Shown here: piece by piece, positions 2,900 to 20,527 of the stretch
Layout of the letters: each line of letters opens with the position of its first letter
Position numbering within the stretch: position 1 is the stretch's first letter
Source of the DNA: a virus
Lineage: Duplodnaviria > Heunggongvirae > Uroviricota > Caudoviricetes
Reading direction: 5' to 3' (one strand)
Virus record (IMG/VR): IMGVR_UViG_2681813269_000007
DNA length: 22,505 nt
The notes under the pieces: model-generated
Databases searched by the model: none
Told to the model about the DNA's origin: nothing
What the model saw: only the letters and a program-made list of their open reading frames with translations
Position numbers and translations under genes: made by a program

Positions 2900-4065
2900 T
2901 ATTCGTTCTCCCAGCGAGGTTTTATTAGATCATCAAAAATTTCTCGGCAAACAGGGTCCCATATAGAAACAGCATTTCTCCATGCATTCAATGTTGAACG
3001 TTGGTTTGCTGCTTGTTCAAATACTGTTCTCATTTTTATCTGGCCTTTACCTACTTCATCGGTAACGCGTACAACCTGACGTAATACCATTGATCCCCAT
3101 GTATTTCTTATTTGTTCTTCCATCCATCGTGATTGATTCCCTGTAGTGAGACTATATTTAGTCAGAAGTAAGCGAACGGTTGGCTCAAATCCACCTAGGT
3201 CAACGCTTTCCAATAGATCGAGAAGCATTGTGAAAAACTGTAGAACAGAAGCGTAATCAAATAATTCTGCAGGTGTAGCAACAACAATAACGTCAGCGGC
3301 ACAAACAACGTTAATGGTTCCTGTACCGAGGTTCGGAGCACTATCTATAACGATAACATCGTAGTTATCCCAAACTGATTCAATAGCTGCGCGCAGCATA
3401 AGGTGTGGAGGATGAGGCAATTTACCCTGAGCATGATATTGCATGAGATCTGTTTCTATACGATGTAAAGCTAGGCAGCTAGGGATAATGTCTAGCCCAG
3501 GCCAACATGTTGGCTTTATAGCATATTCAGCGTTATCGCGTTCTCCTAAGTAAAATGGCAGTAAAGTATCCTCGGCATGGATATGTAAATCAGGAACATA
3601 ACCGTGATACATAGAGGCCGTGCCTTGAGGATCGTTACCTTCAACCAAAAGAACACGATGACCTTGTAATGCTAACCATTGAGCTTGATGTACCGCAGAC
3701 GATGTTTTATAAACGCCGCCTTTGTGTGACATAACGGCAAGCGCAACAGGGTTTTTATCTTGTGGTCGTTGGTTTGGGTTGCCAAAAACTGCTCGCATAC
3801 TGTTGATTTGATCTATGGTATAACCAGCACGACGTTCAATTCTTCCTCTCATTTCAAAGTCAGGTGCAGGTAAACGCCCGCTCTTCTCAGCATCTCTAAT
3901 TGCTTGAGGAGTTACACCAATTAAATCTGCTACTTCAGTTATACCCCATCGGCGGGTGATACGCCGAGCTTCAGGACTATCATCACCGAATTGAGCGATA
4001 GCAATTGCTTTGGTCATTTCTTGACCTCTCGTAACACAATCTTGCAATAACTTTTTCAAAGACAT
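2899..4065 (-). CDS. sopA: Partition ATPase SopA (ParA family, type Ia with N-terminal HTH extension)
   Basis: 388-aa ORF with GGAGATGA RBS. Deviant Walker A KGGVYKTS, a long N-terminal extension, and the same length as F SopA. Transcribed divergently from telN. Confidence 0.9.
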   Translation of the reverse strand: MSLKKLLQDCVTRGQEMTKAIAIAQFGDDSPEARRITRRWGITEVADLIGVTPQAIRDAEKSGRLPAPDFEMRGRIERRAGYTIDQINSMRAVFGNPNQRPQDKNPVALAVMSHKGGVYKTSSAVHQAQWLALQGHRVLLVEGNDPQGTASMYHGYVPDLHIHAEDTLLPFYLGERDNAEYAIKPTCWPGLDIIPSCLALHRIETDLMQYHAQGKLPHPPHLMLRAAIESVWDNYDVIVIDSAPNLGTGTINVVCAADVIVVATPAELFDYASVLQFFTMLLDLLESVDLGGFEPTVRLLLTKYSLTTGNQSRWMEEQIRNTWGSMVLRQVVRVTDEVGKGQIKMRTVFEQAANQRSTLNAWRNAVSIWDPVCREIFDDLIKPRWENE

Positions 4066-7810: not shown

Positions 7811-8137
7811 GCAGCCACCTCGCGCACCGGAATACGGGCAGACAATACCAGGACAAACCGGCTGGCGAACTGGCGACGAGCTTCCCGTTCAGATGACGCG
7901 ATAGTGGAAAGATGATGAATGTGGGACTTTTTGTCTGTGCGAACGACTGCCGCAAATTTGAATTTGAACATGGTATGCACTCCGTTTTATTGGTCGTGCT
8001 ACCTCCAGAGTTGCGAATCTCTTTATTGGTGGTAGCCCAGGCGGGGTTCGCAATACCGGTAAACGAAGAAACCGGCCCGACCGAAGTCAGCCCCACCTGA
8101 GCCACCATAATTCGGATATGCGCAGGTCTATACACAT

Positions 8138-8213
8138 AAAAAAACACGCTGGCGCGTGTTGTGCGCTTCGTTTTGCCAGGATTGCGAAGTCCCGACTGCG
8201 GGATTTACCGCAG
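8138..8213 (-). ncRNA. Candidate small regulatory RNA (c4/cA-like) upstream of the antirepressor operon
   Basis: On the minus strand: -35 TTGACG (8250-8245), -10 TAAAGT (8226-8221), then about 75 nt ending in an intrinsic terminator (ACACGC-GCCA-GCGTGT plus U7, 8159-8138). The predicted RNA has a 5' hairpin CUGCGG-UAAAUC-CCGCAG. No convincing ORF in the region. Confidence 0.3.
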
Positions 8214-8263
8214 CGAGGTGACTTTACCTCCAAAACGACGCACACGTCAATAATTTGCAAAGA

Positions 8264-18799: not shown

Positions 18800-18998
18800 C
18801 TGGTCACGGAATGATAAATAAACAAAAAGGCATAGTTTTTGAAATGATGAGAAAACGAAGCGAAAAGAGTTTTTCTTATGGTGATGATGGGCTTCTGTAG
18901 GTGGTTGAGTGAGGCGTAGGAAGAGAACATAAGTATCGGACTACAAAGCTATTAACCCTGTTAATCCATTGAAAGTTGGCTATAAAATTTGAGTTTTA

Positions 18999-19018
18999 CC
19001 CTGTAATTTTATACAGTA
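18999..19018. promoter_or_regulatory. LexA (SOS) box
   Basis: CCCTGTAATTTTATACAGTA is a canonical CTGT-N8-ACAG with AT-rich spacer, 23 bp upstream of the ATG at 19041. It is the only such match I found in the window. Confidence 0.6.
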
Positions 19019-19040
19019 TCAAATAACCTTTTTTAATTAA

Positions 19041-19259
19041 ATGGTATTAGATTCAATGACTGAAGCATCTGTATCAACTCTTGAAGAACTCGGATCAAAC
19101 CTAAAAGACATCGACGCCGTTTTGGATCTGGTTAGCGTTGCTCTGGCTTCTCCCGAAGCTAGCTTGCATCTTGGCGAGATTTCACGGCTTGTTAGTATGT
19201 CGCGGGAGATTGCTCAGAATTGCCAACAAGCGATTGCTGTGGAGTGTTTACATCATTGA
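19041..19259 (+). CDS. Small acidic protein under the LexA box (candidate SOS-inducible antirepressor)
   Basis: 72-aa ORF, acidic and predicted helical, immediately downstream of the LexA box and convergent with the toxin-antitoxin pair. Confidence 0.55.
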   Translation: MVLDSMTEASVSTLEELGSNLKDIDAVLDLVSVALASPEASLHLGEISRLVSMSREIAQNCQQAIAVECLHH

Positions 19260-19302
19260 TACACACCCCGCCCTTCTGGACGGGGTAGTGAAAAGTGATT
19301 AA

Positions 19303-19590
19303 TCAATAGACGGCATTAATATTAATTGTTGCGCCACATGCTTGGGCATATTTTGATAAAGTTTTCATGCTTGCCCCTAAAGGATTGCTTTCCAGGCGGC
19401 TGATGGCGGACGGGCGCAATCCCATTCGTTCTGCCAGAGCTGACTTCGTTAAACCTGCTCTTTCCCTCATTTCGTATAACATTTCGACCATCTCCAGTTC
19501 TTTATCGGCCTCTTCATATCCTTTGATAGCTTCTGGAGTGTTGAGTAGTTTTTCCTTTACTTCGTTAAACGGGATGCCTTTTGCTTTCAT
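19303..19590 (-). CDS. HTH (XRE-family) antitoxin, HigA-like
   Basis: 95-aa ORF with HTH LTKSALAERMGLRPSAISRLES. Start codon overlaps the toxin stop (ATGA). Confidence 0.8.
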   Translation of the reverse strand: MKAKGIPFNEVKEKLLNTPEAIKGYEEADKELEMVEMLYEMRERAGLTKSALAERMGLRPSAISRLESNPLGASMKTLSKYAQACGATININAVY

Positions 19591-19901
19591 CAGTTCATCT
19601 CCTTCAGGCGAGTTCTGGCGATTTCTATAGCCTTTACTGGTGTTTTCTGTGTCTTTTTTACAAATGCATGCAATAGATAAATTTCGTTACCAGTCGCGTA
19701 GGCGTATAGCGTTCTTGCGATGTTTTTATCCCCTACTCTTAGTTCAAAGAGTCCTCCGCCTATTACACGGCTATGGGGCATCTTAAGTTTGTTTCCCTCT
19801 TTCTCCAGTCGTTCAATTAGCCTGGTCATGCGACCTCGCAGATCGTCTGGTAGTTCAAGCAGTTCATCCAGTGCTGCAGGGTGGGTTATCACGTTAAACA
19901 T
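19590..19901 (-). CDS. RelE/ParE-superfamily toxin (HigB / Gp49-like)
   Basis: 103 aa from ATG 19901, chosen over the ORF-track start at 19946 because AGGAGG lies 8 nt upstream. C-terminal ...LYAYATGNEIYLLHAFVKKTQKTP... matches the Gp49/HigB-type fold as I know it. Toxin-first order. Confidence 0.75.
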   Translation of the reverse strand: MFNVITHPAALDELLELPDDLRGRMTRLIERLEKEGNKLKMPHSRVIGGGLFELRVGDKNIARTLYAYATGNEIYLLHAFVKKTQKTPVKAIEIARTRLKEMN

Positions 19902-19959
19902 ATTATAGCCTCCTAATGCGCAAAATACACCAAAACGAGAAAACAAAGCAAATATAAAA

Positions 19960-19977
19960 TTTCACTAAAAAGTGAAA
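19960..19977. promoter_or_regulatory. Inverted repeat in the toxin-antitoxin promoter region (candidate operator)
   Basis: TTTCACT-aaaa-AGTGAAA lies 60-75 bp upstream of the toxin start within an AT-rich region. Confidence 0.4.
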
Positions 19978-20046
19978 ATAACACTGGATGTGTTCTTTTG
20001 GCAGAGTTACAGTTCGTGTTGTTGAGGGGGATAACCCACTAACTAT

Positions 20047-20286
20047 ATGAATTTTGAGGATATTATGAATTATCAAGGTAACGAAAAAATGCGCGGCGAC
20101 GTTGCGGAGATAGCTAACGAATTGTATGAGTTGTGGCAGAAGGTTGAACGTTTCGAAAAGGAATATGGTTTCAACAGTACCAACCTGACAGACCGACTGG
20201 CTGGCCGCTTAATTGGGACTATGGGGCCAAAACTGGCTGAGTTGAACCGCTTTATGGCTGATGTTGATTTCCAGTTTCAAGATTGA
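20047..20286 (+). CDS. Hypothetical small protein
   Basis: 79-aa ORF. An alternative ATG at 20065 is preceded by GAGGA. Confidence 0.5.
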   Translation: MNFEDIMNYQGNEKMRGDVAEIANELYELWQKVERFEKEYGFNSTNLTDRLAGRLIGTMGPKLAELNRFMADVDFQFQD

Positions 20287-20299
20287 TTAGAGAGGCGTT

Positions 20300-20527
20300 A
20301 TGAATATTAATGAAATTCGTGGAAATATGACTGAAGCGGCCCTGAGTGTGGAATGTGTTATGCGTGGATACCCACGCATTTCCCTGAAAGAGTTAAGCGA
20401 AGCCTGTTTTTTGAGTCAAGCTGCCGTTGAATTTATCATCGAACAGATGATCTGTTTTGGGGTTGCAAAGCGTAGCGGATCTGGTCGATATTCTTTGACC
20501 GATGAATATAAGCAGGCAACTTTCTAA
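20300..20527 (+). CDS. Hypothetical small protein (possible DNA-binding)
   Basis: 75-aa ORF with AGAGAGG RBS. Confidence 0.6.
   Translation: MNINEIRGNMTEAALSVECVMRGYPRISLKELSEACFLSQAAVEFIIEQMICFGVAKRSGSGRYSLTDEYKQATF

Follow-up and report, generated by a model that had tools for sequence, protein, structure and literature searches.

The gene pair 49/48 of the Escherichia coli prophage N15 is, as cited in PMC2701414, PMC5906591, PMC3581621 and PMC3606827, the stabilising toxin-antitoxin (TA) system of the tad-ata type described by Dziewit et al. 2007 (J Bacteriol 189:1983); according to the first three of these papers, growth inhibition by the N15 toxin and its neutralisation by the antitoxin were reported. 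Tad toxins, of which N15 gp49 is an example, belong to COG4679/DUF891 and are related to the RelE RNases (PMC2701414). Toxins with the GP49 domain are always encoded first, and the Tad toxins represent validated modules with this reverse order (PMC5906591), the N15 gp49-gp48 pair being listed as a toxin-first TA with an Xre antitoxin in a 'chaperone-less' locus of the E. coli N15 prophage (PMC3581621). Here we analysed a viral DNA of 22,505 nucleotides, IMG/VR record IMGVR_UViG_2681813269_000007 (Caudoviricetes), called below the window, in which two minus-strand open reading frames (ORFs) lie head to tail in 19303-19987. This locus is the already known gp49/gp48 addiction module, carried by a close relative of N15. 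We are confident that it represents a type II TA operon of the Tad-Ata, or Gp49-type HigBA, class, orthologous to N15 genes 49/48. A HigB/Gp49-like toxin encoded first and followed by a helix-turn-helix (HTH) antitoxin had been proposed for this place in an original prediction, and family assignment by Pfam, the fold, the gene order and the orthology to N15 all agree with it.

The toxin gene (19590..19901, minus strand) encodes a protein of 103 amino acids of the Gp49/HigB type of the RelE superfamily, and the antitoxin gene (19303..19590, minus strand) one of 95 amino acids, in which an N-terminal segment of about 30 residues precedes an Xre/HTH_3 domain (residues 36-88). Compared with the product of N15 gene 49, the toxin showed 91.3% identity in tblastn and 92% in a direct count (95/103 residues), while its identity to the corresponding genes of phiKO2 and Klebsiella phages was 87-91% (tblastn). 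The antitoxin shares 82/95 residues (86%) with N15 gp48. The order of genes around the pair is also common to N15 and the window: a gp46-like regulator, an antC-like ORF behind a LexA box, 48, 49, the divergent genes 50 and 51, and a DNA methylase. It is because of the 92% and 86% amino-acid identity, together with this conserved flanking order, that we regard the two genes as orthologues of N15 49/48.

The genomic setting fits such an assignment. The window matches the Ravinvirus phages PhiR46_1 and YDC107_1 with 96.8% and 95.3% identity, respectively, over about 72% of its length, and more weakly N15, phiKO2 and Klebsiella N15-like phages. When 850 bp around the module were compared with 5426 complete E. 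coli genomes, the module was present in 16 of them, in every case (16/16) on a plasmid record of 36-75 kb and never (0) on a chromosome. Because of the identity to Ravinvirus and the exclusively plasmid occurrences, the window is assigned to a linear plasmid prophage of E. coli of the N15-like (Ravinvirus) kind; the low-copy plasmid prophage setting envisaged earlier is borne out by the same matches. Rfam and tRNA scans revealed nothing within or beside the module.

The toxin matched Pfam Gp49 (PF05973), a family which takes its name from N15 gp49, with E = 3.8e-29 and 101 bits (gathering score 23.9) over profile positions 1-90 of 90; PF05973 was found in all but one of the 120 listed homologues (of 835 in the database), and the PHROGs assignment was phrog_2523. 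NCBIfam offered no specific model for either the toxin or the antitoxin. An alignment of 62 homologues was used for residue conservation, and the structure of the toxin was then predicted. The AF2 model (mean pLDDT 90.7, pTM 0.84) consists of an N-terminal strand, two helices, four more strands and a long C-terminal helix (residues 89-102). In a Foldseek search of the PDB its best match was the ribosome-bound HigB1 of Mycobacterium tuberculosis (7nbu_Y; TM 0.78, 27% identity), followed by Streptococcus pneumoniae HigB (6af4), the crystal structure of HigB1 (7awk), and then YoeB, RelE and YafQ; HigB of E. coli and Shigella gave weak matches (E = 0.1-0.2). The sequence search of the PDB found S. 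pneumoniae HigB as well (E = 5.5e-5 with the single sequence, 1.1e-10 with a profile), the profile search recovering the same HigB chains at 1e-10 and 1e-6.

For HigB1, a catalytic pocket composed of K58, E66, R68, N73, R77, K95, Q98 and K99 was proposed, and its toxicity was abolished by alanine at K58, R68, R77, K95 or K99, with only a mild effect of Q98A (PMC9098466). In HMMER alignments, R45, E53, R55, R63, K82, Q85 and K86 of the toxin studied here align with HigB1 K58, E66, R68, R77, K95, Q98 and K99, the placement of the N73 equivalent being not secure. Among the 62 homologues, E53 and R63 are invariant, R55 and K82 are conserved in at least 90%, and R45, Q85 and K86 are the majority residues. 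The modelled toxin has the RelE/HigB fold and equivalents of the catalytic residues of HigB1; structure prediction had been suggested as a check on the original proposal, and this check was run. Since the RelE fold and the conserved catalytic residues occur together, we infer that the protein would cleave mRNA on the ribosome.

The longest toxin ORF (19590..19946) begins with a TTG codon, and an internal ATG is located at 19901. A strong ribosome-binding site at this ATG had been noted previously, with the conclusion that the upstream start is unlikely, and comparison with relatives agrees. The Shine-Dalgarno sequence AGGAGG (19909..19914, minus strand) lies 7 nt before ATG 19901; its GGAGG is invariant in 5/5 orthologues (the window, YDC107_1, N15, phiKO2 and KpLi5), and so are the first codons. 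By contrast, the 45 nt between TTG and ATG are variable and contain indels across the same five orthologues. The equivalent methionine is the start in 17 relatives. Of the 120 homologues listed among 835 in the database, almost all have a length of 102-108 amino acids and an equivalent Met start, and both the N15 and the RefSeq annotations begin at ATG. Because GGAGG is invariant, the TTG-ATG stretch variable and the homologues 102-108 amino acids long, the 103-residue toxin starting at ATG 19901 is taken as the correct reading. The 118-amino-acid ORF from TTG 19946, whose extension is unconserved and lacks a Shine-Dalgarno sequence, was ruled out, and the 5' extension (19902..19946, minus strand) is judged to be non-coding leader or promoter DNA.

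The antitoxin matched HTH_3 with E = 1.6e-12 and 47.7 bits (cut-off 23) over residues 38-88, and phrog_1373 with E = 3.4e-36. Its matches in the PDB were all weak and comprised HipB, M. tuberculosis HigA2 and S. pneumoniae HigA, the last one near full length (E = 0.0084). The gene has its own Shine-Dalgarno sequence, AAGGAG (19599..19604, minus strand), at a distance of 8 nt from the ATG and inside the toxin gene's 3' end. At the junction, CTGATGAAA, the toxin stop TGA (19592-19590) and the antitoxin ATG (19590-19588) share one A (TGATG, 19588-19592). An ATGA overlap of 4 nt, claimed in the original prediction, was ruled out by reading the sequence: the TGA within the ATGA letters is not the toxin stop, and the stop and start codons overlap by 1 nt. 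A genuine 4-nt ATGA overlap exists at the same junction in phiKO2, Xenorhabdus and Entomohabitans, and N15 uses TAATG; the toxin-first order with an overlap of 1-14 nt was found in 17 relatives.

The A+T-rich intergenic region upstream of the toxin gene spans 163 nt (19902-20064) and contains a dyad, TTTCACT-N4-AGTGAAA with the spacer aaaa, at 19960..19977, i.e. 59-76 nt upstream of the toxin ATG. This dyad is proposed to be the operator for the antitoxin or for its complex with the toxin. The palindrome is not significant by itself: an inverted repeat with 7-nt arms arose in 10% of shuffles of this region, and 68 such repeats are present in the window. More informative is its conservation in relatives, 75-79 nt ahead of the ATG. 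In the window, N15, phiKO2 and KpLi5 the dyad is part of a nearly invariant block, while the sequence between the dyad and the Shine-Dalgarno motif diverged. Among 76 sequences upstream of the gene, taken from genomes and viral contigs and including 56 distinct ones, a dyad kept the same position, its 5' end lying 71-79 nt ahead of the ATG. The arms changed together in several lineages: CAC/GTG is found in the majority, whereas Xenorhabdus has CTC/GAG, Enterobacteriaceae LSJC7 CTA/TAG, one viral contig ATC/GAT and Erwinia AGTTA/TAACT. Other variants were changed in one arm only: AGTGAAA was kept while the other arm read TTTCTCT, TTTATCT or TTTCGCT, and the Klebsiella group had AGTTAAA. These look like evolutionary intermediates.

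In 22 hand-chosen variants, 88.9% of cells were paired vs 79% in shuffles and double-sided changes numbered 11 vs 3.6; the covariation score was 0.231 vs 0.090, a value reached in 0/500 shuffles, and slid controls gave at most 0.054. As the sequences are related and the selection was not random, these values constitute moderate evidence. Because the position is fixed and both arms show compensatory changes among relatives, the dyad is most likely the operator of a dimeric HTH antitoxin. No simple code linking the recognition helix to the half-site emerged, the Xenorhabdus (CTC) and Entomohabitans (CAC) proteins sharing the helix PSAITRLE.

A separate problem is the location of the promoter with respect to this dyad. 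In 10/12 relatives the best sigma-70 match places the -35 element 50-53 nt and the -10 element 27-30 nt before the ATG, in the form of TTGnnn and of TATATT or TATAAT, often with an extended TG. The candidate at the conserved position in the window (19922..19951, minus strand) would comprise a -35 of TTGCTT (19946-19951) and a -10 of either TGTATT (19924-19929) or TATTTT (19922-19927). If this promoter is used, 8-9 nt separate the end of the dyad from the -35 element downstream of it, and TTG 19946 would lie outside the transcript. An alternative promoter-like match specific to the window (19951..19978, minus strand; 9/12 consensus matches) would use TTTTCA (19973-19978), inside the dyad, as the -35 and, after 16 nt, TATATT (19951-19956) as the -10. 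Its -10 is not conserved, N15 having GCCTAT there, and this dyad-overlapping site was kept as an alternative only. In the consensus scan, promoter-like sites were no more numerous in the region than in shuffles. The earlier statement that the palindrome sits in the toxin promoter holds, therefore, for the weak window-specific match, whose -35 is inside the dyad, and not for the conserved candidate, which lies just downstream of it. A location of the dyad within the promoter, either over the -35 or just upstream, is plausible. The -10 at 19924-19929 reads TGTATT in the window and the YDC107_1 lineage vs TATATT or TATAAT elsewhere, an A to G change at the second position, and a TATATT lying 22 nt further upstream is a gain of the window alone. 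The promoter may have shifted within the window/YDC107_1 lineage.

In the light of these observations, the module could operate as follows. One leftward promoter in 19902-20064 would give rise to a bicistronic mRNA, from which, as read from the sequence, the toxin would be translated from ATG 19901 behind AGGAGG and the antitoxin from its own AAGGAG, with the one-base stop/start overlap, so that both proteins would be made together. The toxin would act as a RelE-fold, ribosome-dependent mRNA endonuclease, and, by general type II behaviour, the N-terminal part of the antitoxin would neutralise it. A dimer of the antitoxin, with or without the toxin, would bind TTTCACT-N4-AGTGAAA and repress the operon, as the covariation of the dyad and the habits of type II systems suggest. 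Upon loss of the plasmid prophage, the labile antitoxin would decay and the toxin would arrest growth, which would stabilise the plasmid in the population; this step was reported experimentally for the N15 orthologue, and it may be expected here from the 92% and 86% identity.

Several points weigh against this scheme. Toxicity, neutralisation, lability of the antitoxin, DNA binding and stabilisation are attributed to the pair by transfer from the N15 orthologue and from what is known about the family, and Gp49-type toxins are not all toxic, as evidenced by the non-toxic HigB2 and HigB3 of M. tuberculosis (PMC9098466). The G at the second position of the window's -10 element (TGTATT) is expected to weaken the conserved candidate promoter. 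One arm of the dyad is broken in about 1/4 of close relatives, and the recognition helix of the antitoxin shows no visible correspondence with the half-site sequence.

In the original prediction the module had been described as convergent with an SOS-controlled ORF. Indeed, a small ORF (19041..19259, plus strand) is preceded by a perfect LexA-box consensus, CTGTaattttatACAG (19001..19016, plus strand). This CTGT-N8-ACAG site is the sole match in the window, with 0.24 expected by chance, and it overlaps a promoter-like pair, TTGAGT-17-TACAGT. YDC107_1, N15, KpLi5 and three N15-like contigs carry the same motif at the corresponding position, and phiKO2 does not have it there. The ORF product is 56% identical (E = 3e-26) to that of an ORF which N15 carries, unannotated, between its genes 47 and 48 and which is likewise preceded by a LexA box, and it matched phrog_10889, 'anti-repressor', with E = 2.2e-6. 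Homology to the annotated N15 gp47 was ruled out (23% in a forced alignment). Induction of N15 through the LexA-controlled antirepressor AntC is described in PMC4488713, PMC3121763 and PMC11652158, which cite Mardanov and Ravin 2007, and our inference is that the ORF at 19041-19259 would be the counterpart of antC, an SOS-controlled antirepressor homologue. The unannotated N15 ORF with its LexA box occupies 3167-3434 of N15 (L002); it is presumably antC itself, and it is absent from the N15 RefSeq annotation. Naming in this region is inconsistent, as relatives call unrelated small ORFs 'putative gp47', two of them in YDC107_1.

The stop codons of the antC-like ORF and the antitoxin gene, which converge, are 43 nt apart, and RNA folding detected a GC-rich hairpin between them (19267..19287), a probable terminator or insulator without a T tract. 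Its folding energy in a 66-nt context is -21.7 kcal/mol on the plus and -26.0 kcal/mol on the minus strand (z = -3.0 and -3.9). A terminator scan of 18900-20400 called no terminator, and this hairpin was found by folding only. Hairpins are present at the same place in N15, phiKO2 and KpLi5, and the one in N15 is a classical T-tract terminator. Elsewhere, e.g. on a 174-kb Xenorhabdus contig, there are related modules that carry the same dyad and have no LexA box or antC neighbour. Since the arrangement is the same in N15-like phages, a hairpin lies between the genes, and related modules occur without antC or a LexA box, the adjacency to antC is best described as backbone synteny of N15-like phages. 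A link of the module to SOS induction or phage exclusion, raised as a possibility in the original prediction, found no support beyond this adjacency.

Other explanations should be considered for the role of the pair and for the activity of its toxin. It is unlikely, though worth weighing, that the main role of the pair is directed against phages, by abortive infection or superinfection exclusion, with plasmid stabilisation as a side effect. Some type II TA systems do abort phage infection, as is generally known, and the module is present in several kinds of temperate phages, namely the N15-like ones and the Stx phages 75/02 and POCJ13 (47% identical toxins). Residues 43-95 of the toxin also gave a weak partial match (E = 2.6e-7) to the C-terminus of NsnC, a candidate defence protein in PADLOC. 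However, no PADLOC system model fits the whole pair, and beyond this partial match and generic HTH matches PADLOC assigned no defence system; a literature search found no report of defence by N15 gp49/gp48 or close relatives, and the sole reported phenotype of the orthologue is replicon stabilisation, although the two roles are compatible. Far less credible still is the view that the toxin is a ParE-like gyrase poison and not a ribosome-dependent RNase. RelE and ParE share one fold, the NCBI family bears the name 'RelE/ParE', and ParE structures do appear among the weaker Foldseek matches. They are found, however, only lower in the list (E > 0.03, TM 0.39-0.50), whereas HigB, YoeB or RelE RNases account for all the best matches in sequence and fold; moreover, the catalytic-pocket residues of HigB1 are conserved in the toxin, and the long C-terminal helix is a feature of Gp49-type HigB proteins (PMC9098466). 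A plasmid-stabilising TA operon with a HigB-type RNase remains our preferred interpretation.

With respect to the regulatory sequences, the dyad at 19960-19977 might be, instead of an operator, a hairpin, a transcription terminator or part of an A+T-rich, UP-like element. The GenBank record of N15 does annotate the equivalent stem-loop as a putative rho-independent terminator, TTTTATATTT comes after the stem on the toxin strand, and folding of the 46-nt RNA gave -7.5 kcal/mol (z = -3.4); the compensatory changes would be equally expected from an RNA stem. In close relatives the left arm is often broken and the right arm kept, and with the conserved promoter candidate the dyad would fall at about -44 to -61, in the zone of UP elements. 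However, no more than 7 pairs, including 2 G-C pairs, make up the stem, and the terminator scan makes no call here. No leftward unit that would need termination is evident upstream, genes 50 and 51 running the opposite way, and transcription from the conserved promoter would leave the dyad outside the TA mRNA. HTH antitoxins as a rule use dyad operators that adjoin or overlap the promoter, and in a distant relative, phage 75/02 Stx, the toxin gene is immediately preceded by a perfect 16-bp palindrome of different sequence. On balance, a non-operator role of the dyad appears improbable. Even less can be said for a coupling to the SOS response, in which LexA-controlled transcription of antC would read through the T-tract-less hairpin antisense to the TA genes, lower the antitoxin level and activate the toxin. 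The convergent stop codons only 43 nt apart, the missing T tract and terminator call at 19267-19287, and the adjacency of the antC-like and antitoxin genes kept in N15, phiKO2, KpLi5 and YDC107_1 would permit such read-through. Yet a strong hairpin stands at this position in every orthologue, with a T-tract terminator in N15, which argues for insulation rather than coupling, and the dyad-bearing modules lacking a LexA box or an antC neighbour indicate that the pair works as an independent cassette; we consider SOS coupling very unlikely. A composite proposal, in which the operator diversified via one-arm mutants into specificity classes (CAC/GTG, CTC/GAG, CTA/TAG and ATC/GAT) and SOS-driven antC read-through of the hairpin additionally tunes the module, is doubtful. 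If it were true, the operator classes could allow related phage-plasmids to carry mutually non-interfering addiction modules.

Some further observations were made in the course of this analysis. The palindrome of Shigella phage 75/02 Stx (L005, 1105-1125), ATAACAAATTTGTTAT, stands directly before the start of its Gp49-type toxin, 47% identical to the one described here, and the annotated coding sequence of that toxin apparently starts about 65 nt too far downstream relative to the N15-type proteins. The half-site AGTGAAA recurs at 19287-19299 (AGTGAAAAGTGA), just beyond the antitoxin stop and beside the hairpin; the plus strand of the window holds just 4 copies of this 7-mer, and the one here may be due to chance. 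Between the dyad and gene 50, two blocks, 19995-20020 (minus-strand reading CTCAACaACACGAACTGTAACTCTG) and 19980-19990 (ACATCCAG), are almost invariant in the window, YDC107_1, N15, phiKO2 and KpLi5, the leader being less conserved. They may serve genes 50-51 as promoter or operator, or be a site for some other protein; the consensus promoter scan called none on the plus strand.

On single IMG/VR contigs of 44-92 kb the module was found twice, in opposite orientation (L089/L095, L107/L108, L118/L128, L119/L123 and L122/L127). Such doubling resembles the outcome of assembly through the hairpin telomere of a linear plasmid prophage, either as a head-to-head palindromic artefact or as a replicative dimer. 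Elsewhere in the window, Rfam detected a C4 antisense RNA (8025-8112, minus strand) and isrK (8139-8214, minus strand), which fit the immA anti-immunity region of N15, and a match to the IS009 RNA family at 1669-1867.

The import of these results lies mainly in annotation, as genome pipelines already label the pair on E. coli plasmids as 'type II toxin-antitoxin system RelE/ParE family toxin' and 'helix-turn-helix domain-containing protein'. Three points may nevertheless be useful: the 103-residue start of the toxin is correct; the stem-loop marked as a terminator in N15 behaves, in comparisons, like a protein-binding dyad; and the small ORF behind the LexA box is the probable counterpart of N15 antC, a gene missing from the N15 RefSeq annotation and inconsistently named in relatives.

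Among the described systems, N15 gp49/gp48 is the closest one. Both modules reside on Ravinvirus linear plasmid prophages, in the same order of gp46, antC, 48, 49, 50, 51 and methylase. In both, the stop and start codons overlap by one base; 95/103 and 82/95 residues are identical, and the dyad (TTTCACT-tttt-AGTGAAA in N15) is at the same distance from the ATG. They differ by 8 substitutions in the toxin and 13 in the antitoxin, none at the proposed catalytic residues; by a diverged leader between the dyad and the Shine-Dalgarno sequence, with a candidate -10 of TATATT in N15 vs TGTATT in the window; and by the spacer to the antC-like gene, which is 64 nt in N15 vs 43 nt in the window, where the hairpin differs in sequence and lacks a T tract. 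The archetype of the group, Tad-Ata from pAMI2, a plasmid of Paracoccus aminophilus, likewise has a toxin-first order, a DUF891/Gp49 (COG4679) toxin, an Xre-type HTH antitoxin and a role in plasmid stabilisation (PMC2701414, PMC3606827), but it is a distant homologue from an alphaproteobacterial plasmid, compared here by its published description.

The best structural match, M. tuberculosis HigB1 (HigB-TAC, Rv1955; 7nbu, 7awk), has the same Gp49-type RelE fold with a long C-terminal helix, and its K58, E66, R68, R77, K95, Q98 and K99 all have equivalents in the toxin; it belongs, however, to a tripartite system with a SecB-like antitoxin chaperone, and no chaperone gene is present at the N15-like module. 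HigBA of S. pneumoniae (6af3, 6af4) provides the best PDB sequence match of the toxin, and its HigA a weak, near-full-length match of the antitoxin, although toxin identity is only about 24% and that system is chromosomal, in a Gram-positive host. The classical HigBA systems of plasmid Rts1, E. coli and Vibrio resemble the module in the toxin-first order, the RelE-superfamily toxin and the HTH antitoxin; nevertheless, their fold matches are weak, and Gp49-domain toxins are little similar to these HigB proteins (PMC5906591).

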